A DNA stretch of 62,479 nucleotides, the filler included, from Globobulimina sp. (taxonomy: Eukaryota), in the NCBI GenBank assembly GCA_003354225.1. It is 19 parts of 19 records of this genome, joined end to end, with 100 filler letters (N's around TTAATTAATTAA, not from the genome) between each part and the next. Parts side by side here need not be neighbours in the genome. Positions count along the whole stretch, not along the records: positions 42,834 to 46,025 come from PIVH01003456.1; 18 more parts are not named here. One strand, written 5' to 3'. The notes under the pieces are model-generated. The model made no database searches and was not told the origin of the DNA. It was given only the letters and a program-made list of their open reading frames with translations. Positions 35,653-51,088 of this stretch are shown piece by piece. Position 1 is the stretch's first letter, and each line of letters begins with the position of its first letter. The translations under genes and the position numbers were made by a program.

Positions 35653-36247
35653 AACGTGTATATAATATTATTATATATTATGTAAAAAACAGATGACTAA
35701 TTATATATTATAGACTGGTTTAATAATTATTACACAAAAAAAATAATTACGTAAACTGGTCGCGTCTAAATCGCTCCTAAATATTTTTTTTGTTCTTTTT
35801 TTTGTTTTTGTGTGTATTAAAAATGTGATAAATATATGTATTCTTTATAGCCCAAAAAATAGAAGCACCTTTTTTTGTAATTTGTGTTTTGCTTTTTGAG
35901 TGTCAAAATTCTGTTTTTTTTGTTTCTATTTTATTAAATAAAACAGTTCTGGGTCTAGCTAAAAACAGCAAATAAAGTTACTTTTATGGCGTTTTTTGGT
36001 AATAAAATATTTGATTAGAAATCCAAATCTGTGCTATTTCCGATATGCCAAGTACTTTAGAATATGACCTGTTTAAAACACATTGTTTTTAAAATCCGCA
36101 AATTCGCAAGTCGTTTTGTTAGGAGATGGTGATGACCTCTCCATAGGNNNNNNNNNNNNNNNNNNNNNNNNNNNNNNNNNNNNNNNNNNNNTTAATTAAT
36201 TAANNNNNNNNNNNNNNNNNNNNNNNNNNNNNNNNNNNNNNNNNNNN

Positions 36248-37078
36248 CATATGCACGCAACGCAGATAGAACCGATGGCGACCTCTACCCAAACACTACC
36301 GGATAAATCCACCAAATCCTCGTCAAAATCCAAGCATTGCAGCATGAAACGACCGTATTCCGCGACCTTCGCGACGTCGACCCGGAAAATTGCGATTTTG
36401 ACCAATTTGGAAAATACGCCGCCACCAATATTGCCCTCCTCTGTACGGGCACATGCCTTTAAACCGCAGTTAAAAGCCAAAGCGGTGCGGTTTTTCATGT
36501 CGCCCAGTAATAAGAGCCAGGATGTTGGCAAAGGGATAAATGGCGGCAGTGGCGTTGGGATGCATTATTTTCGGAGTTATGATAAAATAAAAGGTCGCAA
36601 ACGACATAGGTCGTCGTCTGCCAATTCATTGGAGTTACCGTTGCCAGTTAGTATTAATAATAATATTTTAACTCCGCGGAGTATATTACGGTTGGGGAGC
36701 AATGCGAGATCCACCGATGAAATGTTTAAGTCATTGACACCAAAATATGCAAAATCTATGAAATATATTAAATCAATCAGTCCAAACAATATTAATATGC
36801 TGAATTATAAGAAAAGCAAGAATAGTGATGGTGCTATGTTGAGAACTAAATCGAGCGACAATGCGCCTGCAAGAGGCAAAATGCATAGGATCTCACCCAA
36901 ACAATTTATATCACCGTATTCTAGGTCGCATGGCCATGATGTTACACTTTTGCAAAGGAACGATACCGGCAATACCAATGCCAGTGCGATTACTATACCT
37001 ATACATGAGGAGAAAAGTAGTAGTGACAATCAACAGCGTTTTAAATTTGACCATCAAGTCATTCAAGAAACAAAATAA
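36248..37078 (+). CDS. Basic, Ser-rich disordered C-terminal fragment
   Basis: 275-aa ORF from the contig edge. No domain recognised. Confidence 0.55.
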   Translation, partial: HMHATQIEPMATSTQTLPDKSTKSSSKSKHCSMKRPYSATFATSTRKIAILTNLENTPPPILPSSVRAHAFKPQLKAKAVRFFMSPSNKSQDVGKGINGGSGVGMHYFRSYDKIKGRKRHRSSSANSLELPLPVSINNNILTPRSILRLGSNARSTDEMFKSLTPKYAKSMKYIKSISPNNINMLNYKKSKNSDGAMLRTKSSDNAPARGKMHRISPKQFISPYSRSHGHDVTLLQRNDTGNTNASAITIPIHEEKSSSDNQQRFKFDHQVIQETK

Positions 37079-37138: not shown

Positions 37139-37853
37139 TCATTCTGTTTTGTGATCATCTTGATTTTCAACTGATTGTTGAATATTATTAATGTCATCAA
37201 TATGCTGTTTTACAAACTGCTGTGTTTCTTTAAACTTGTTATGTTTGGCATCTCCTAATAATTGAAATACCATAGATTCAGATGTGGTCAATACAGCACC
37301 ACATTGATTTAATCTTTTCATAGCAATATCTTTATCCACAGTTCTTTGTGAATCAATTGCATCAACACATAAATGAACGTTATATCCTTTTTTTAATAAA
37401 TCAAGAGCTGTTTGTAAAACACAAATATGTGCCTCAATCCCGGTCAATATTATGTCATTTCTATCTTTTAAACCTCCAATTTCAAGTAATTTAGTGTCAA
37501 CTTCATCTGTAATCATGGAAAATTTTGTTTTTTCAAATATTATTGTTTTTGAGCTTGCCAATTCATCTCTTGTTCTACCAAATGCTTTTGGATATTGTTC
37601 AGTAGCAATCACTGGAATATCCATTGCAAAGCTACAATGCATTAAAAACTTTGAAGAACATACAACACGTTCAATATGTGGTAGATGGGCACCCTTTTAT
37701 TTTGTATTTTGGTGCAAATGCACATGATTGTATTTGAATTAATTTATAACACATTAACTAAACAAATTTTCCCTGGATATCGCATAGCAATAATATTGAT
37801 GACTTGATAGTTGGTGTGTTCAACACTTTGCTTGCAATCGACGTGTACGCCAT
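37139..37853 (-). CDS. Isochorismatase-domain protein (ISOC/YcaC-like), exons 37853-37764 and 37693-37139
   Basis: LLCDIQGKF, TEQYPKAFG, KTKFSM and GIEAHICVLQTALDL. The 70-nt intron 37694-37763 (GTTTAG..AAAG) restores the frame. Confidence 0.92.
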
Positions 37854-39540
37854 TGATAAATTAAAGGCTTTCAGAAGTTTTTTATGACAACTACAAAATA
37901 CAAACCACAACAACCCAAACATCCTTTCTTCTTTACTCCAACTCTCACAATTCAAAGTTCGTCTGCAATTATGCAGAAATAGTAAGTTAATCTCCAAGAC
38001 ACATCATATGATTTTAATGATGATATCTTTAGAACCCGCTGAGTTTTATTGATGACACAATTCAATTATACGACTTCTCTTTCTTCTGATAATAAAACTA
38101 AACTTCCAACCTCTTTTATTTACCATCAAATTCATTTTATTATTGATTCGTTTTATACACAGCCAACCCAAATGGTCGACATTCTAGATTGAATTGCAAT
38201 ATTTCCATCCACCCCATCTAAAAATGTATGCTATTTTATTATGACATGCCATGTTTTAACAATGATGATACTCTGTTTTACCCTCCTGAGCAAAACTGCG
38301 TTGATGACGACCAAACCTTTACAACTACTCATCCCCTGATATTTCCTCATTTGCATTATCAGATATTATGACATTAATTTGTCCAAATCTATGTTACATT
38401 TTGCCTGCATTTGATTTGATTATATTTAGCTGAGCAATTATATATCATCGGAAAATTCTGGAATTTTATTACTAGCATCAAAAGAAACACTTATTATTAT
38501 TTAGGATAAATGGCTGATGGCGCAAAAGCAAAGAGCAATGTGGTATGTTTTTACATCTTAAATACAACTCTTATTTTTTAAAAGATGACCATTAGAACTG
38601 CTGTTGAATTAATTTTGTTACACCTTAGAACATGAAAAATCATTCCAACTGCTGATACAACAAAAATTGTTTTTCTTTTTTGTTTGTTTCGTCGACATGG
38701 GAATTAATGAATATTTTGCTATGTGTTTATTAAACAGATAAAGGTCTATTGATTTATCAATGGAGAGGTAAGCGAACATGGCATTATTCAACTTATGAAA
38801 TGAGCACATTGCGCGATTTAATGGTGATTGCAGACAAAAGTATGTTTTACACAGAAATTTAATCTGTTTTTTTTTACGTTTTGATGATCCATCTAATACT
38901 TTTCGAGTGAGTAGAGACATCTGAACTTTATTTATGTGGATGCTTTCGGATAATACTGATATTTTACAAGTGATTTTTGTTTATATTGTCATATTTTTGT
39001 GCTGGATTTATAAATGAAATAATATAACTAATAAATAGATGGTTTATGCGATGCAAGAATACAATCATCAAAACATGAAACTTTAATGATGACAAAGCAA
39101 GACAATGCGGCCAAAGGTATATTATATTAACAATGTTTATGGTTTATTTGAATGATGACAGAAAATACGTCAAGTCAGTTGAAACTGATATTGTTAAATA
39201 TGATTATTAACGCATTCCTAATGCTGACTTAAAACCATTTATTTCTTTCCCCTCTCTGCAATAATAAATCATTAAAACCTGTTTTTTATTTTAATAAACA
39301 GCAATAATACATTAATAATTAACGGACAAAGGTGTATGGCCCGGATGGATATTCTGAAGGTATGACACTAGCACTATACACTACATTTCTTTAATATGTT
39401 TTTGTGTTTTAAACGTGTCAGAATATTAAAATTGATGCTTNNNNNNNNNNNNNNNNNNNNNNNNNNNNNNNNNNNNNNNNNNNNTTAATTAATTAANNNN
39501 NNNNNNNNNNNNNNNNNNNNNNNNNNNNNNNNNNNNNNNN

Positions 39541-42500
39541 ATTATTCTCCTCGATATCCGATACACGCAAGAATGCATTCTCGTTGTTCTTTGCATATAT
39601 TTCCATTTCCTCCGCTTTGATGTCAAACTGGATGCCATAAATCACCGATAACAATACACAAAAGACAGCCACGCAAACTAATATAGTCCAAGCCATTTTT
39701 TTATACCAATGTGGAAATGGATAGTTATAATTAAATAAAATTAACCGGATTTCGGAGGCTAAACCGGCCTTTTCAGAGGCATTCGCTTTTGTGTTTACAT
39801 AATGCATACATTTACGGACTAATTTCATGTCGGGGCGGCTGGTCTTCTTTAATTCTGCCATGGCACTCCAATACGTGGTGGATAGCCTCTTTTTTGTTAC
39901 ATCTGTGTCATGCATTTGTCCAGTTTGTTTTAAATATTCTTCATCTTTTTCCTCCAAATCAATATTATCCATATTATCCATAGTGTCCATAGTTATATTC
40001 TCCGTGGTGGACGGTATCGGATCAGAGGTTGAATCCGTGATTAATGGTTGATTAAATCCCGGATTTGTGGATCCAGAGCGTGATTTGGCAGATTTTACAA
40101 TTCTAGGTTTACTCCATTGAAATAATACTCGTATAATATAAACAGGGACGGTACCAATTAAACTAATCAGTGCAGAAGCCGTTAAATCGCCGATTGGCTT
40201 TCTGGTCGTTTGATTGCCATAAAAAATTGCGTCCGCCATCATAATGCAATACATGTACAATAAAAATAAACCAATTCGTTGTTTGGTACTAAAGTTGGTT
40301 CCATCTGTACGTTGAAACACGGATAATACGGTATGATCATTTTTGAGATAGGTTCGAAATAAATTTACGGACAATAAACAATAATATTTTCCGGTTTTTG
40401 ATTTCCTTTTAACGTTAAAACCAGCGGTATTACGGTGAGAGACATGACTTGTTTGCGTTGGTGATATAAATAATGGTGAATTATTTACAAATTCACTATC
40501 TTCCGCAGCCATATTCTCCTTTAAATCTTGTTTAATATGTTCAATTTTGGTATACCATCTGTCAATTTGTTGAATTTCATGCCATTGTTGGTGTTTATGT
40601 AAATATTGATCGCGGAATTCTTTATAAATAATATCTTCAAAGGCAATGATAGGTTTATCGGCATTATTATTTGGTACACAGATACAAGCCACGACTAAGA
40701 CCACCACAATCATCAACATGGTGACCCAGGTGGTTGGATGTTTGCCGATATTGGCTTTCGACAATATTCGTAAATCTGCAGTGCTCAATAATTGCGCTTT
40801 GGGGTCAAAATCTTCCGCCGACACTTTAAAAGTTGTTAAATGCGTACAGGCACAAATCACACTGTCCACATCAACATCATACACCACACAGCCTGTCCCA
40901 TTCCATTCCGATTCCATTTTATCCCAAAATATGCATTTTGGATACGAAATACCGGAGGTATTGTACCAATCGCCTGTAATCGCAGCATCAAACACATTAG
41001 AATCACCATTGGCATTCACATATTTGGACGGCAAATTCATAGATATAAAATAGGGGAAACAACTATCATTGGTTTCAAATACACGCGTACCATCGGCAGA
41101 GAATAAATCAATGGCGACCTCATCATCCACATCGATCTTGGTAATTATACATTTTATGCTCTCTTGACTGGTAGCCGCATTATTCGGTGGTATGGTGACA
41201 GAAACACTGCCAAACTCACATACCTCGTCTTTATGGATTAGCGAGCCCTGAGTCTGCGACCCCTCCCTTACATGGATGATCACTTCGCCGTGCCAGGTGC
41301 CCGTTAATTCCACCTCCATAATGGATTGCACATTATCGATAAGTTGCAGTCTATCTGCAGCTGTGAAATTCGACACATTCAATAAATTGGTAGCCACACT
41401 GTCGGCAATGCCACCTACTTTTTGCACAGTTTCTGCCAACACACCAGTTTCATACTCGACCTCGCTATCCAAGAGCTCCAAGGTCGTGTTTAATACGGCC
41501 GGCAACCACTCGCTACTAATTTGCAATGCAAGCTCAGTATCCACAAATGTGGGATCAGAGGTTAATAAATCCACCAATGCAACATTGGCGGTAATGCCCT
41601 CTAAGGTCGTATTGGCATTGTCCGTATCTAAGTTAGTATTACTCATAATAGTTTGCAATGCATTTGCAATTTCTTGTGCGCCATCTTCGCCGGATGGCAC
41701 TTGATCCTCTGCCACCATGCTCGTCAGCAAACTGTAGGCAGCAATCACATCTTCGTTATTTGCGGAATGCAGATTGGACACAATGTCGGTCCATAATTGC
41801 TGCGGTGTAGTAGACGCCAAAATAGTCGTTAAATTATCCCAAGAAGCTGTAAAATTAACAAAGAAGACAGGAAAGCATTCCTCATACCTCGTACCAATGG
41901 CAGTTCTGGCGCGGACCAATGCGATTAATGAGTCAGTGGATAAGGATTGGGTGCCCACAATGGTATCATTGAACTCTTCCTGTCGGACATATTTATCTGG
42001 AGCTAATAATACGTCATTCATTAATATATTAAATTGGATCTCATTTCGTATTACGCAGGCACCACAACTGTCTGAACCACGATCAATTCGACCAATACTC
42101 GCAAAATTTGGACAATCTTTGCATTTATAGCCATCACAGCGAATCTCAAATTTACCAAATGCCATCGAGGAATGCTGGGTCACGCGACATCCGGTGGGTA
42201 GTCCTATGGCGCTGGTCTTTATTGGATCGGTGCTCCATGGTTCAATGTGCATAAAATTAAACGTAAAATCTTGTGCATGCGTAGTAACACCACTATATAT
42301 TTTTATATGTTGCAATAGTATACACAAACAACACGCAATTTCGCTAAAAAAGAAAAGAGAAAAAAAACACAAACAACATGCACATGAACATGGACAAAAC
42401 TTGGTGGCAATTAAAGTAATAACAGAGGAATGATTATAGCCAAATATCCACGGTTCGGAGGTGTCAACACAATATCCATTATGTAAGGTTCTATGAGAAG

Positions 42501-42733
42501 GGATCAATAACTGTGCCACTGTAACTTGTTGTACATTATCTGGCATATTTCCACAGGCTCTCCCTAGACACGCACAGCCGGTCCTCGTCTTCAAGGCAGT
42601 ATCAAACTTGCTGTTAATCGTAGCCATATCATCGCCATCAATCGCAAATGTGATATTCAAGCTATCATCGATAATATATCCCAACCCTTCTGTAATCACA
42701 ATGGAGATATGATTATTATTCATTATTTCAAGA
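39541..42733 (-). CDS. Polycystin-1 (PKD1/REJ)-like GPS/GAIN receptor, both ends truncated
   Basis: GPS motif CIFWD..W...GC...CACTHLTTF, then TM1, HTVLSVFQR...FSTKQR and YGIQF. Probable in-frame intron at 42293-42400. Confidence 0.8.
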
Positions 42734-42858
42734 NNNNNNNNNNNNNNNNNNNNNNNNNNNNNNNNNNNNNNNNNNNNTTAATTAATTAANNNNNNNNNNN
42801 NNNNNNNNNNNNNNNNNNNNNNNNNNNNNNNNNTTACAAGAAAAAAGCAATCTAAACG

Positions 42859-44105
42859 TTATTGCCCATCCAAATAAGCTTGACAGACTCTAGCAGCGGC
42901 CTGATAAATATATTAAAATTAATATAAGCAAACACAGATAAATATATTAAAAGTATACATGTACATACATAACACCCGGAAGCTACAGCACCTCCACCTC
43001 CAGCACACACAAGAAAACCAACACCTGAAAAACAGCTACCAACGATAGCAACTGAACCAGCCCCACATCCTACAGCAGCCACAATACAATCCCATTTCGT
43101 TGTAGCTAATCTTCTTCGGATATTTTCAAAATCAATACCTGAATATAAACAATGTTTTAATTGCAACCCAGACAACAACTCATCAATGTTACTATTATTA
43201 AATAAGACTCCTAAATGTGTATATTCCGCAGATAATGCATCAAGATCTGTGTTGACAAAGTTATCCATTGCCTGTGGACTAAACCTCGAATCCAAAAATT
43301 CATCGAATGTAATTATATCATGATTTGGATCAGTTTTGGCAAAAACATCAAACTCTAATCCTGCTACGCGTTTCAAATAGTTTTCTTTTGTGACAAAGCC
43401 TTGCTGGAAATCATCCAATTCAACAAAGGTAAGCTCCGCAACATACTCCCAAAATAATTGATCTTTGTACACTGTTGTGTTATAATTATACATTTCTTGA
43501 ATAACACCTTCAAATAATGGATGTATGATATTTCGCACAGATGATAACTCACTGATAATCATGAAATAAATAACAGCTTCTTTATATGACCAAACGTTGT
43601 CGTGATTTAAATCCATAAAATCAAACGAATCATATTCACCGCCTCCGTCCATTGATTCAATATAAAATCTAATAAATTCTTCTTTTGCCCATAAATCATC
43701 GTTATCTCCATCATATTCATTAAATATTTTCTTAATTCTCGAGATTTCACTATTATCGAATGTAAATGATGTACAATTTTCATCCATTAAACACTGCGTG
43801 GGATCCTCTAATATTGCGTTTGCCAAATCCTTTTTTTTGTATAACATATTTGTTGTATAACATATTTGTTGTATTAGGTTTGTTGCAGTTATACAAAACT
43901 AAACTTCGCTCTTTGCAGTGTTATTTGAATTAAAAAATAACTGATAACAAATAATAATAACTGTTACTGCCAAAACAACGGAGCAGACTGCAATTAATAC
44001 ACCAAATAAACGTCTGCTACCTTTTTTTCTTACCACATTTGCTGATATTTCTACAATTTCATCATCGTCTAATTCGACATTCGCGGATGTTTGAAGGTAA
44101 GACAT
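42859..44105 (-). CDS. Type II membrane EF-hand protein with C-terminal RRRL and a Cys-rich peptide; exons 44105-43905, 43829-42969, 42900-42859
   Basis: N-terminal TM, EF-hand-like loops DGDNDDLWAKEE, DLNHDNVWSYKE and DDFQQGFVTKEN. Two GT-AG introns join the ORFs in frame. Confidence 0.75.
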
Positions 44106-44177
44106 AGTATTGGATGGTATGGAGTGGAGTTACAAGTTGATTAAAAAATGTCAGAGAAACACAGGTTTTCTGGTCAA

Positions 44178-45778
44178 ATGCATCAAGTTATGCTGGTTTC
44201 GTTGTTGTGTTTGTGTCTTTTTGTGACCTGTTCCGTTGGGTTTCACCCAAAAGTAAATGGAAGACGGCTAACACATCGCGATTTAGGTCCAAATCGTCAT
44301 CAATACCACGTTTCAAAAATATTGGGTTCATCATTGGATTTTGCAGATATATATTCTGCTCAAAATGAATCTGCTGCAGATTATCCGATTACAATTATTT
44401 ATGTAACAGATTATGGCGCAGATCCAACCGGAATGACTGATTCCACTGCGGCCATAAATGCAGCAATTACTGAAGCACTTACAAGAGGCTCTAAAATGCC
44501 AAATGTCTCCCTAGGTTTGAATAGCATTATACATTGTTTTTGATTGCATATTGTTAATACCATAAAACTGCAGCAAACGGCATACATGATTGTGGTGGCG
44601 TTACTATTCATGTTTAGTTGCATAGTCAGTACAACTTCTATACGTCTGCGAGTTATATAATATATATGCAGTTAGGAGGTGGAGACTATTTAATATCCGC
44701 TCCATTGATTATACCTCAGTATTATGGCAATTTAAGAATGGTCCATGGCACGCTCCGCGCAGCAAAAGCATTCACGCCAAGAAACTCATATTTATTAATT
44801 GTGGGCGATGACAGTAAATCAAAATGCAACAATCCTCAAGGTTGCTGCAATGAAAACGTAGCTATAGAAAATATGATGTTTGATGCGTCGCATATCGCGG
44901 CTGGCTGTGTACGCGTTGTAGCTACGATGGGCTTCGTCGTTTCCACGCAAATGTTCTTCCTTGGCTTCAATGCAGCGGGTGTTACAATCTCTGGCGGCCA
45001 CGAGACCATGATCTCTGACGCTTGGTTTGGCGAATTCTTATATTCCTCAAATGCATATAAAACAGCAAAAGCAACAGGGATTCAGGTATTTGGCAACGAC
45101 CATTACATCACAAATACCATTGTGTTTTCGTCCAAGATTGGAGTGCATATCACCAATCCTGCCAATATATTGACCGGGGTTCATACTTGGAACATGAATG
45201 CAGGCGATGGCGGTATTGGTATCTTGTTAGAATCGACACAAACTCGGTTATTGGCGTGTTATTTTGATGGGAATGACTTAATTATTAAGGCTCCCATACA
45301 AACTGTGTCCGTCGAGGATGGATTTTTTCTGTTCAGCTCTCAGGTGGTCTTGCAAGCGAATGGTGGGTCGTCGGTGATTGATGGATTGAGCATTGTGGAT
45401 AATCAGTTTTTGTATGGCGGGACACAGCCAATTTTACGTTTGGACGAAAGTAATGGTAAATTTAGAACGGTGAAGCAAATGATGGTTCGGGATAATTTGA
45501 TACAAAGTGGGCATCGATATGTTCAGCCGCGAATATCGGATATGATTACTACGAGTAATGCCGTTGAGTATGTATTTGATTTTAAGGGACAGTTATTATT
45601 CGATGTTAATAATATACCGATTGCATGGATGGGTTATACTGTGCAATATAATGATAATAGTTTTACAGCGCATGCCTTACGAAGGCCGAATGGAACCAGA
45701 GTGGTTGTGGAGTTTGAAAAAGCAACATCAGCGACTGTATATTTGACTGTTGACCAATCTGTGTCTGCTTCCTACTGA
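44178..45778 (+). CDS. Secreted QRT3/pectate-lyase-3-like beta-helix polysaccharide-degrading enzyme; introns 44515-44573 and 44612-44671
   Basis: VTDYGADPTGMTDSTAA. The spliced sequence LANGIHDCGGVTIHLGGGDYLISAPL, then GGHET, GNDHY and GVHTWN, resembles QRT3. The start could be 44148, 44178 or 44190. Confidence 0.82.
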
Positions 45779-46498
45779 AAGGCGTTGAAATTATTTTATA
45801 ATTTATACATACAGTAATTCACAGTAGTATGACTAACAACTTTCGTCTGTGTAGTGATGTAGGAAACCAATGTAGCTGACTACGGATGTACTGTCTCGCA
45901 GTTACGCACTTACTTTACATTTCACAATTCTTTCGCCAAAAACTCCACTCTAAAATAATAAATCAGATCCATGGGAAATTCACGATCTTTGAATACAGAT
46001 GCATATTTTAACCTAAATACTTGGANNNNNNNNNNNNNNNNNNNNNNNNNNNNNNNNNNNNNNNNNNNNTTAATTAATTAANNNNNNNNNNNNNNNNNNN
46101 NNNNNNNNNNNNNNNNNNNNNNNNNCTTCCACTGTTTTTCTCTGAAAAAACAAATAGGCAAACAATATATTTACTGTTTACCCACTGCTTATTATGTAAA
46201 CACAGTGCAGTTGAATATTGCTTTTTTTGATAGGCAAAACATGGTGTACCCAAAAACATTTTGATATGATAGATATTGTGTTGGATTTGGTTGACAGTTT
46301 GTATGCTGAATGGTTGCAAACAAGAATTAACTGCGCATACTCTCGGATTAATGTACACTTTTTCTGAACAGATGCTCCATAAAAGAAAGAATAACTTTGA
46401 GTGTTTTTTATGTGATGAGTTGCATCCAAAGTGAAGGAGGAAATGTTTGTGTTATCTGGCTGTGGCTGTAAACATTTAATTGAAAGTGTGGAACATTA

Positions 46499-49316: not shown

Positions 49317-49633
49317 NNNNNNNNNNNNNNNNNNNNNNNNNNNNNNNNNNNNNNNNNNNNTTAATTAATTAANNNNNNNNNNNNNNNNNNNNNNNNNNNN
49401 NNNNNNNNNNNNNNNNTGCCCTTCATATACGAATCCCGGCATGATTCAGTTCCATTACATTCAATGTAGCAATCATACCCATCAAGGCATGAAATGGTTG
49501 CATGAATACATAAATATGGGAAAGAATTACAAAAACAAAACTGAGTTTTTTCTTCTTCATTAATAATGCATCTTAAATGCGACAAATCGGTCCCTTTTGG
49601 ATAAATTATTAATTATATACGAATTTGTATCAA

Positions 49634-50397: not shown

Positions 50398-50961
50398 TCA
50401 AAAGAAATCACAAACTAACCACCTTGGCACCTTTGCACAATAATCCTTAAATTGTTGTCCAAAATATTTTAATAATCCTTGTTCCTCTCGGGGTATAACG
50501 ATAAATTGTGAATAAACATAAAACAATGCCAATCCCGTTAAATGTAAATAGTTATCTGCTATGATGGAAGCGCCCAAAATAACGCCCATTCCGCCGACAT
50601 ATAACGGATTCCGTGTATACGCAAATGAACCATTGGTCACTAAGTTTCTCACAGGTTTGCCATGACGAGGACCAACATCTTGTTCACTCATTGCTTTCTT
50701 ACCTGAACTTTGCATCCAATTTCCACATACAATCAATGCTGAACCAAATATGCCACGCCATAATACAGCATTGTTATTTGCAGTAACATACTGCGGCAAT
50801 GGTGATATTACTGATAGCGGCAATGATGGCATATATTTACCAATCTTAGACCAATAATTTAAATTCCTTTTGCCAGTGAATTGAATTATTAGTGGCAATC
50901 CTAAATTCGACAATAACAGCCACAATGGGCATACAGGAACGTTCACAATCGCACCATCCAT
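50398..50961 (-). CDS. Isoprenylcysteine carboxyl methyltransferase / PEMT-family membrane methyltransferase
   Basis: LVTNGSFAYTRNPLY and EE..L...FG..F..Y..KVPRW motifs. Confidence 0.87.
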   Translation of the reverse strand: MDGAIVNVPVCPLWLLLSNLGLPLIIQFTGKRNLNYWSKIGKYMPSLPLSVISPLPQYVTANNNAVLWRGIFGSALIVCGNWMQSSGKKAMSEQDVGPRHGKPVRNLVTNGSFAYTRNPLYVGGMGVILGASIIADNYLHLTGLALFYVYSQFIVIPREEQGLLKYFGQQFKDYCAKVPRWLVCDFF

Positions 50962-51088
50962 ATTTTGTTTCCAAAAACACAAAGATCGAAAATCTTTTTA
51001 ATAAATAAATCTTTGAGCAAGCATGATCGCAGAGTTTCATTGCACCCTTCGACAAAGCCACGACATCCACCATTATGTTCAATATGAG

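Follow-up and report, generated by a model that had tools for sequence, protein, structure and literature searches.

What kind of protein joins a membrane anchor, an EF-hand region, an Arg-Arg-Leu (RRL) motif and a small cysteine-rich tail in a single chain, and what might the tail be for? The question is raised by a minus-strand gene at 44105..42859 of a 62,479-nucleotide stretch of DNA from Globobulimina sp. (GenBank assembly GCA_003354225.1); this whole stretch, which chains parts of 19 records with filler between them, is called the window here. Judged from the sequences of its relatives, the gene is the Hint-less form of a foraminiferal family, 'EF-hand Hog', because longer paralogues carry a Hint domain directly after the cysteine region. 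We read its product as a type II EF-hand protein that would be cut at RRL to free a disulfide-stapled helical hairpin as cargo, and we give this reading, with its predicted topology and disulfides, its putative cleavage and its proposed role for Ca2+, a probability of roughly 0.55. A preliminary description of the locus had picked out the parts of the protein from the DNA alone. Its apparent place as a Hint-less member of a family in which a Hedgehog-type Hint follows the cysteine module is the main addition made here.

When the three exons are joined by their coordinates, the coding sequence of 1104 nt translates into 367 residues with 0 internal stops. The features of the gene are listed below in the direction of transcription. 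P0002 is the protein encoded by exon 2, P0003 is an orthologue that was used for structure modelling, and X1, X6, X7 and X10 are public contigs that were aligned to the locus.

43905..44105, minus strand: exon 1, 201 nt with the ATG at 44105, coding for residues 1-67, an acidic and then basic N-terminal flank (presumably cytosolic) and the signal-anchor helix; it is covered by RNA-like contigs that run on into exon 2
43932..44009, minus strand: signal-anchor or transmembrane helix, residues 33-58, with Kyte-Doolittle values up to 3.0 in 19-residue windows and an estimated insertion energy down to -3.5 kcal/mol
43830..43904, minus strand: intron 1, 75 nt, GT..AG, skipped in X6, X7 and X10 and present in X1
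42969..43829, minus strand: exon 2, 287 residues (68-354, P0002), with a Cys-pair stalk, the EF-hand domain, a linker Cys, RRRL and the greater part of the Cys tail
43281..43748, minus strand: acidic domain with four predicted EF-hand-type loops, about residues 95-250, from Pfam scores of homologues and the P0003 model
43677..43712, minus strand: EF-hand loop 1, residues 107-118, with canonical ligands at positions 1, 3, 5 and 12 in a pattern scan
43578..43613, minus strand: EF-hand loop 2, residues 140-151, canonical, with D, D, S and E positions that reach 90% conservation or more in 40 family members
43107..43118, minus strand: RRRL, residues 305-308, nearly invariant in the family, a putative luminal processing site
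42969..43106, minus strand: first part of the tail module, residues 309-354, with predicted helix 1, the turn, the start of helix 2 and Cys 1-5
42901..42968, minus strand: intron 2, 68 nt, GTATGT..AG, its junction taken from a loose end of X6 record 9
42859..42900, minus strand: exon 3, 13 residues (355-367) plus TAA, with the end of helix 2, the sixth Cys and a polar C-terminus

Relatives of the protein were collected by several searches. A word-based homologue search returned 5 close homologues, a profile search of 1.84 billion representatives returned 52 relatives at E<=1e-3 and 25 at E<=1e-10, and a second word-based search, with a 40-member alignment as the query, returned 6 proteins only. 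Homologues of exon 2 share 51-70% identity with it. Records of 25 of these proteins were looked up; 15 of them name a taxon, and all 15 belong to foraminifera (Elphidium 1, Bolivina 11, Nonionella 3); the other 10 comprise one protein from a marine transcriptome set without a taxon and nine unnamed metagenome or assembly proteins. The window is most simply read as foraminiferal, and the sequences suggest a gene family that is foraminifer-specific and undescribed. No second copy of the gene was found in the window by a profile scan in six frames.

We then scanned 19 family members against Pfam. The Hint domain (PF01079) scored above the cut-off in 11 of the 19 and below it in 4, and was absent from 4, including P0028. 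In the members that bear it, Hint lies directly after the Cys-rich stretch that follows RRL, begins with Cys-Phe and contains a T-x-x-H motif. The family layout thus begins with an anchor or signal peptide and continues with an EF-hand domain, RRL and a Cys module, after which Hint is either present or absent. No Hint was matched in P0002 of the window protein, whose open reading frame ends 7 residues past the sixth Cys, and its transcript orthologues end likewise.

The N-terminal domain is homologous to that of the Hint-bearing paralogues, the cargo homology that marks Hint-less relatives of the ground-like type. Profile E-values against three Hint-bearing members are 2.0e-28 (P0011), 7.8e-24 (P0012) and 2.9e-20 (P0015), and BLASTP aligns the orthologue P0003 with the Hint-bearing P0011 at E 7e-28, the alignment reaching through the Cys module. 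BLASTP pairs the fifth Cys (C5) of the P0003 tail with the nucleophile Cys of Hint and MAFFT pairs the sixth (C6); judged by its spacing, P0011 seems to possess the full set of six in addition to the Hint Cys. The product of the window gene approximates the part of the Hint paralogues that would remain once they had cut themselves.

To place the gene within the family we used a quick maximum-likelihood tree of the EF region and the RRL columns (40 rows, 220 columns), which is unrooted and carries support from the approximate likelihood-ratio test SH-aLRT only. The window gene falls inside a well-supported (95) clade of 8 Hint-less proteins. Across the tree, Hint-bearing and Hint-less members interleave, with 8 label changes of which at least 2 are forced by well-supported branches. 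Because the tree is unrooted and some of the Hint-less rows may be truncated transcripts, we make no claim on the direction of gain or loss.

Other C-terminal parts also occur in the family. In P0028 a trypsin domain (PF00089, E 1.6e-11) replaces Hint. Five paralogues (P0012, P0016, P0020, P0025 and P0029) have a conserved stretch after Hint and then a C-terminal hydrophobic helix, as seen by eye. Given this helix, self-cleavage of these five would give two membrane-anchored parts, and the conserved stretch may be an adduct-recognition region.

The feature shared by nearly all aligned members is the RRL motif. In the alignment of 40 members the four columns of RRRL hold R in 30, R in 39, R in 38 and L in 37. 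Only 12 columns reach 90% conservation, and they comprise the R, R and L together with Ca2+-ligand and core residues of the EF-hands. The degree of conservation of RRL is close to that of the Ca2+-ligand positions themselves. The tripeptide occurs 42 times in the 17,857 residues of these 40 proteins, where composition would predict 0.034 per 450 residues. The segment after the motif varies, with a grand average of hydropathy (GRAVY) from -1.00 to +1.64 and a Cys count from 0 to 15; with the Cys columns set aside, pairs of members share a mean identity of 0.12 in this segment and of 0.245 in the EF region. In the P0003 model, the predicted local distance difference test (pLDDT) dips at the RRL linker between the EF domain and the hairpin (71 for block 311-320), so that the motif, conserved in position, sits in a lower-confidence linker whose location would be luminal.

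Several paralogues carry the motif at a second border. In P0046, P0060, P0061 and P0062, all Hint-bearing, a first RRL follows the EF-hand domain and a second lies 14 residues before the Hint Cys, heading a conserved small Cys peptide. In P0028, by our own reading of one sequence, RRKL stands 1-2 residues before the start of the trypsin domain, with an RRL also ahead of it. Because it is nearly invariant at the border of a conserved domain and a variable tail, recurs as a second RRL and takes the form RRKL before trypsin, the motif appears to behave like a processing site, and by analogy with apicomplexan and diatom motifs compared below it may be cleaved. The preliminary description had made its proposal depend on homologues that conserve RRL and the cysteines. 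The motif holds up on this count. The six Cys are conserved among the closer relatives, whereas distant paralogues keep RRL and have very different Cys-rich tails; the same distant paralogues, with RRL kept and tails diverged, answer to the constant frame with a variable peptide for which it had proposed a search.

Of the 59 residues in the tail that follows the motif, 12 are Gly, 12 are Ala, 8 are Val and six are Cys, these last at positions 315, 322, 333, 342, 353 and 360. The Cys spacing of 7, 11, 9, 11 and 7 forms a mirrored 7-11-loop-11-7 frame, which is exact in 6 of the 40 members and present with small variants in 4 more, and the two halves of the tail mirror one another in Cys placement. 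Since steps of 7, 11 and 18 residues make 2, 3 and 5 turns of a helix, the three Cys of each half would lie on one face of a helix. Tails in this Cys frame are found in P0017 and P0018 too, yet there they are acidic and non-hydrophobic.

We modelled the orthologue P0003. A model with a 6-sequence alignment was unusable (mean pLDDT 38.4) and a 40-sequence model was used, with a pLDDT of 82.5, a predicted template modelling score (pTM) of 0.77 and tail helices at 320-346 and 351-377. In this model the tail is predicted to be an antiparallel alpha-helical hairpin. Given the mirrored Cys spacing and the hairpin in a confident orthologue model, three ladder disulfides, C1-C6, C2-C5 and C3-C4, are likely. 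Residues 316-380 of P0003 matched generic antiparallel helical hairpins in VIA-align, with a best Z of 8.9 that lies in the common range. A Foldseek search of the model against the PDB gave zero matches at E<=0.001, the tail alone gave chance-level matches only against Pfam and NCBIfam (FAD_binding_4 at E 0.028, MurB at E 0.017), and a feature search of the ESM Atlas with the tail stayed at noise level (best 0.80, with one Gly-zipper cluster at 0.76). The tail is hydrophobic without a clear membrane span, since insertion of its best 19-residue window is estimated at +2.06 kcal/mol and that of the anchor at -3.5. A complex prediction between the EF-hand domain and the tail, both of P0003, scored 0.00, with neither controls nor our alignment in use; it gave no verdict and is evidence neither way.

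The rest of the protein concerns topology and Ca2+ binding. Residues 1-32 are acidic and then basic, and five basic residues flank the anchor N-terminally, which by the positive-inside rule suggests a type II, N-in orientation with the remainder luminal or extracellular. The N-terminus of the paralogue P0016 reads, by eye, as a cleavable signal peptide and not as an anchor, and the ectodomain carries conserved Cys and N-x-S/T sites. From these starts and sites and the basic flank we infer that the EF-hand domain is luminal or extracellular. A further RRL, at residues 31-33 (44007-44015, minus strand) just before the anchor on the presumed cytosolic side, is probably there by chance, since the orthologue P0003 does not have it.

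Paired 12-residue loops with ligands at positions 1, 3, 5 and 12 identify the EF-hands, two of them canonical and two further ones, downstream in the pattern scan, degenerate. The net charge of residues 62-304 is -33. The window protein itself scored 14.1 bits against EF-hand_6, under the Pfam gathering score of 25, and EF-hand families exceed the Pfam cut-offs in many paralogues (66.6 bits in P0015, 65.3 bits in P0012). The P0003 model shows four helix-loop-helix units with short strands, and EF-hand proteins match its middle in VIA-align at Z 7.3-7.8, a range rated as a common arrangement. A sequence search of the PDB with the family profile gave weak EF-hand matches only, the best at E 0.13. 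On the strength of its EF-hand loops and the P0003 model, the strongly acidic domain is predicted to bind Ca2+.

These parts suggest how a processed precursor might work. The protein would enter the secretory pathway, where its EF-hand domain would bind Ca2+ in the lumen or outside the cell. A luminal endoprotease, either RxL/RRL-specific as in apicomplexans and diatoms or a dibasic convertase, would cut at RRL, leaving the EF-hand pro-domain anchored in the membrane and setting the hydrophobic hairpin free. The cargo would then be this hairpin, either a membrane-partitioning peptide or a surface or secreted one. In the Hint paralogues the same type of cargo would be released at its C-terminal end as well, and might carry a lipid adduct. 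That a convertase makes the cut and that Ca2+ governs how the peptide is held, both already put forward in the preliminary description, are steps that we infer. Tentatively, the scheme could be widened to a foraminiferal peptide-precursor system built on Hedgehog logic, in which a membrane-anchored, Ca2+-binding pro-domain would carry varied stapled cargo that is cut at RRL on its N side and, in many paralogues, by Hint on its C side, perhaps with addition of lipid, while the cargo of the window gene would be hydrophobic enough in itself to associate with membranes without a lipid.

Several points weigh against the released-cargo reading or limit the data behind it. The Bolivina and Nonionella sets share near-identical proteins and may not be independent, and the structure model was made on the orthologue P0003 and not on the window protein. 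The 40-member alignment omitted 18 of 58 sequences (near-duplicates, short fragments, three generic EF-hand proteins from the weak end and the trypsin member). A looser scan of 57 proteins found an RR-type motif after residue 140 in 44 and none in 13, ten of which are short or have a match that ends before the motif position, the other three being generic EF-hand proteins. The tail has Kyte-Doolittle values of 1.6-2.0 over 19 residues, with which insertion as a membrane hairpin is possible, and the tails of P0025, P0029 and the Cys-free P0033 resemble ordinary membrane segments, where RRL is perhaps a basic flank.

The neighbouring gene on the same contig gave a further point on this side. This two-exon gene at 44145-45778 on the plus strand encodes a secreted protein of the pectate-lyase superfamily, whose homologues carry PF12708 and whose closest homologues, P0063 and P0064, have EukProt-style identifiers like those of the foraminiferal sets. 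Its signal peptide is followed by a short stretch that ends in RRL. Among the 6 orthologues with N-termini, 0 keep this RRL, and three have R-x-L at its position (RYL, RDL and RHL). We had considered that RRL might mark processing after signal peptides more generally in this organism, and the idea failed on these orthologues.

The alternative that survives best is an uncleaved polytopic membrane protein, in which RRL is structural or a basic flank and the Gly/Ala hairpin lies in the bilayer beside the anchor, so that the protein would act as a luminal Ca2+ sensor with STIM-like logic. The tail helices of about 27 residues in the model and the hydropathy of up to 1.6-2.0 fit such a hairpin, but the insertion energy, +2.06 kcal/mol where the anchor reaches -3.5, does not. 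Some paralogues look the part: in P0025 RRRL is directly followed by a clear hydrophobic helix, the Gly/Ala/Val tail of P0033 is free of Cys, and P0029 has a long hydrophobic stretch. Against them stand the acidic tails of the same frame in P0017 and P0018 and other tails that are basic or polar, with GRAVY down to -1.00. A basic flank would place three basic residues on the luminal side, contradicting the positive-inside rule, and RRL is a delimiter twice over in four paralogues. The six conserved Cys on mirrored faces also fit a luminal disulfide ladder better than a bilayer. As the cleavage in the released-cargo reading is itself putative, we regard the membrane hairpin as unlikely but as a serious competitor.

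Much less probable is a fusion or pore-forming tail that is activated by cleavage under control of the Ca2+ domain and serves pseudopodial or gamete fusion or the killing of prey. A multibasic site followed by a Gly/Ala-rich hydrophobic segment is known from class I viral fusion proteins and from glycine-zipper pore formers. The window protein resembles these in having its 12 Gly, 12 Ala and 8 Val in a 59-residue tail directly after RRRL and an EF-hand domain adjoining. The tails of paralogues, however, are often hydrophilic, so that such a role would be limited to the subfamily of the window gene at most. Searches of Pfam, NCBIfam, Foldseek and VIA-align gave no sequence or fold match to fusogens or pore formers, and the best tail feature score of 0.80 is noise.

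That the C-terminal stretch is a glycosylphosphatidylinositol (GPI) attachment signal, to be replaced by a lipid anchor, had been named in the preliminary description as a finding that would overturn its proposal. The region is hydrophobic and rich in small residues as such signals are, but by inspection its last 7-10 residues are polar in the window protein and in its orthologues, it forms a 59-residue module with six conserved Cys, and the paralogues have a hydrophilic tail or Hint at that place, which together make a GPI signal very unlikely. The bacteriocin- or toxin-like character seen earlier, taken as a bacterial antimicrobial peptide fused to a eukaryotic carrier, is scarcely credible: it comes from composition alone (Gly/Ala-rich, hydrophobic, with Cys), Pfam and NCBIfam gave no match to a bacteriocin or Gly-zipper family at E up to 10, the introns of the gene are spliceosomal and one of them falls within the tail, which contradicts a bacterial origin, every named relative is foraminiferal, and the tail is homologous to the pre-Hint modules of the paralogues.

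The six-Cys tail depends on the gene model, and splicing was checked on public contigs aligned over 42840-44200. For intron 1, three RNA-like contigs (X6, X7 and X10) from relatives with 95-99% identity connect 43828 with 43904 and omit 75 nt; X6 and X7 come from one sample. Their RNA nature is an automated guess, and no source sequencing run is recorded as RNA; we take them as transcripts because their joints lack introns. For intron 2, X6 record 9 spans 42840-42898 and then has a 21-letter loose end, of which 14 letters match 42969-42982, exactly and uniquely within the window, and therefore mark the junction of exons 2 and 3. X1, from a DNA-like run, passes unbroken and unspliced across both introns. 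GC content is 0.347 in the exons against 0.227 in intron 1 and 0.176 in intron 2, in a region of AT-rich eukaryotic DNA with a GC of about 0.26-0.44 per 2 kb.

The two-intron gene of the preliminary description is thus borne out, as is its order of signal-anchor, acidic EF-hand-like region, RRRL and six-Cys tail, the loops now being four in number with two canonical. It had also stated that the sixth Cys appears only after splicing, and this Cys is indeed encoded in exon 3. Transcript-derived homologues have the same ending, C-x6-C followed by a short polar end, so that the C-terminus is real and the sixth Cys is confirmed. A retained intron 2 would also leave the reading frame open. P0009, a gene prediction from another genomic contig, reads through at the intron 2 site, right after C-Y, which suggests that the position of the intron is conserved. 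Because retention keeps the frame and P0009 reads through, automatic annotation of the EF-hand Hog family likely has wrong C-termini.

The stop codon lies 26 nt from a gap of N with a TTAATTAATTAA linker, the gap beginning at 42833. Runs of N around the TTAATTAATTAA linker occupy 42734-42833 and recur near 36200-36250, 39493-39540, 46074-46130 and 49320-49364. Because the window chains short contigs artificially, gene neighbourhood across these gaps is no evidence. On the minus strand at 39541-42732 is a 1064-residue open frame with a GPS motif (PF01825, E 5.9e-9, residues 598-635), followed by hydrophobic stretches as seen by eye. It is a second autoproteolysis-type surface protein beside the gene, but across an artificial gap. 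Two ordinary genes, also on the minus strand, encode an isochorismatase-domain protein (37142-37696, E 7.1e-22) and a phospholipid methyltransferase (PEMT) family protein (50401-50997, E 2.3e-12).

To our knowledge, Hog proteins outside animals are mostly sequence curiosities whose cargo domains have no known function. The cargo of the EF-hand Hog family has parts that can be read, namely a domain predicted to bind Ca2+, a candidate cleavage site that hardly varies and a small, probably stapled hairpin, and this brings a protist Hog family within reach of bench experiments. Proteins that bind Ca2+ in the lumen or outside the cell, and peptides that act on membranes, matter in foraminifera, whose pseudopodial networks constantly fuse and remodel and many of which calcify. 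If the released-cargo reading is true, the hairpins would be a new class of secreted or surface peptides in protists, for signalling, self-recognition, or membrane fusion or attack within the network of pseudopodia. RxL-type secretory processing, described in apicomplexans and diatoms, would then extend to Rhizaria. Should RRL be cleaved, such processing would be common to apicomplexans, diatoms and foraminifera and might date from early in the group that unites them.

We compared the protein with known systems, part by part. Antiparallel helix pairs with ladder disulfides and mirrored Cys are found in the CHCH twin CX9C proteins and the plant alpha-hairpinins. The window tail differs from these in its three predicted rungs, its 7/11 spacing, its Gly/Ala-rich hydrophobic surface and its presumed secretory location, and shows no sequence relationship to them. 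STIM1 and the CREC family are luminal or extracellular EF-hand proteins. The window protein is like them in its predicted EF-hand Ca2+ binding on the luminal side, and in being, by prediction, single-pass like STIM1; one paralogue has a weak match to the STIM1 EF-hand family of Pfam. Unlike STIM1, the window protein is predicted to be type II with four EF-hands, it has no SAM domain, and the homology is that of EF-hands in general only.

Within the literature collection searched, we found no published account of a transmembrane anchor, EF-hands, RRL and a mirrored six-Cys hairpin in one protein, and none of a Hint domain in foraminifera or of Hint paired with an EF-hand. None of the matches listed for Reticulomyxa and hedgehog was relevant by title or abstract, and a literature search for plasmepsin V in Rhizaria found nothing relevant. 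The available excerpts of PMC10284544 mention foraminiferal EF-hand genes in general terms only.

The putative cleavage site has its likenesses in TEXEL proteins of Toxoplasma (RRLxx) and in diatoms. According to excerpts of PMC4764566, TEXEL substrates are cut after Leu by the Golgi protease ASP5, also when the motif lies far from the N-terminus or at the C-terminal end of the protein, and PEXEL with plasmepsin V is the related system of Plasmodium. In the window protein RRL would likewise lie in the secretory lumen, far from the N-terminus and near the C-terminal end, and its cleavage is putative. Unlike the TEXEL and PEXEL proteins, it belongs to free-living protists without export to a host cell. 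The diatom 'RXL domain' of silaffins, cingulins and silicanin-1 is, in excerpts of PMC5525289, a pro-region that ends in RRL and whose removing protease is unknown. There RRL follows the signal peptide at the N-terminus, whereas here a folded EF-hand domain of about 240 residues would come first and a C-terminal peptide would be released.

Hedgehog proper shares PF01079, with its Cys-Phe start and T-x-x-H, with the Hint-bearing paralogues. The window gene differs from Hedgehog in lacking Hint, and the HhN signalling domain is missing from the window gene and its paralogues alike. Because the defining Hint domain is missing, the window gene is not itself a Hog protein but a Hint-less paralogue of Hog proteins. 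Among known kinds, the Hedgehog-related genes of nematodes come closest. Excerpts of Burglin 2008 (PMC2362128) describe warthog, groundhog and quahog genes with Hint and ground-like or wart-only genes without it; the terms EF-hand and Rhizaria are absent from that paper, although its species list includes one cercozoan. Common to both groups is a lineage-specific secreted N-terminal domain joined to Hint, with many paralogues that consist of the N-terminal domain only (PMC2362128). The hosts are different, Rhizaria here and animals there, and the foraminiferal cargo, a membrane-anchored EF-hand domain with RRL and a Cys hairpin, has no sequence likeness to the nematode domains. In its relation to Hint, the window gene stands to its Hint-bearing foraminiferal paralogues as ground-like stands to groundhog in nematodes.

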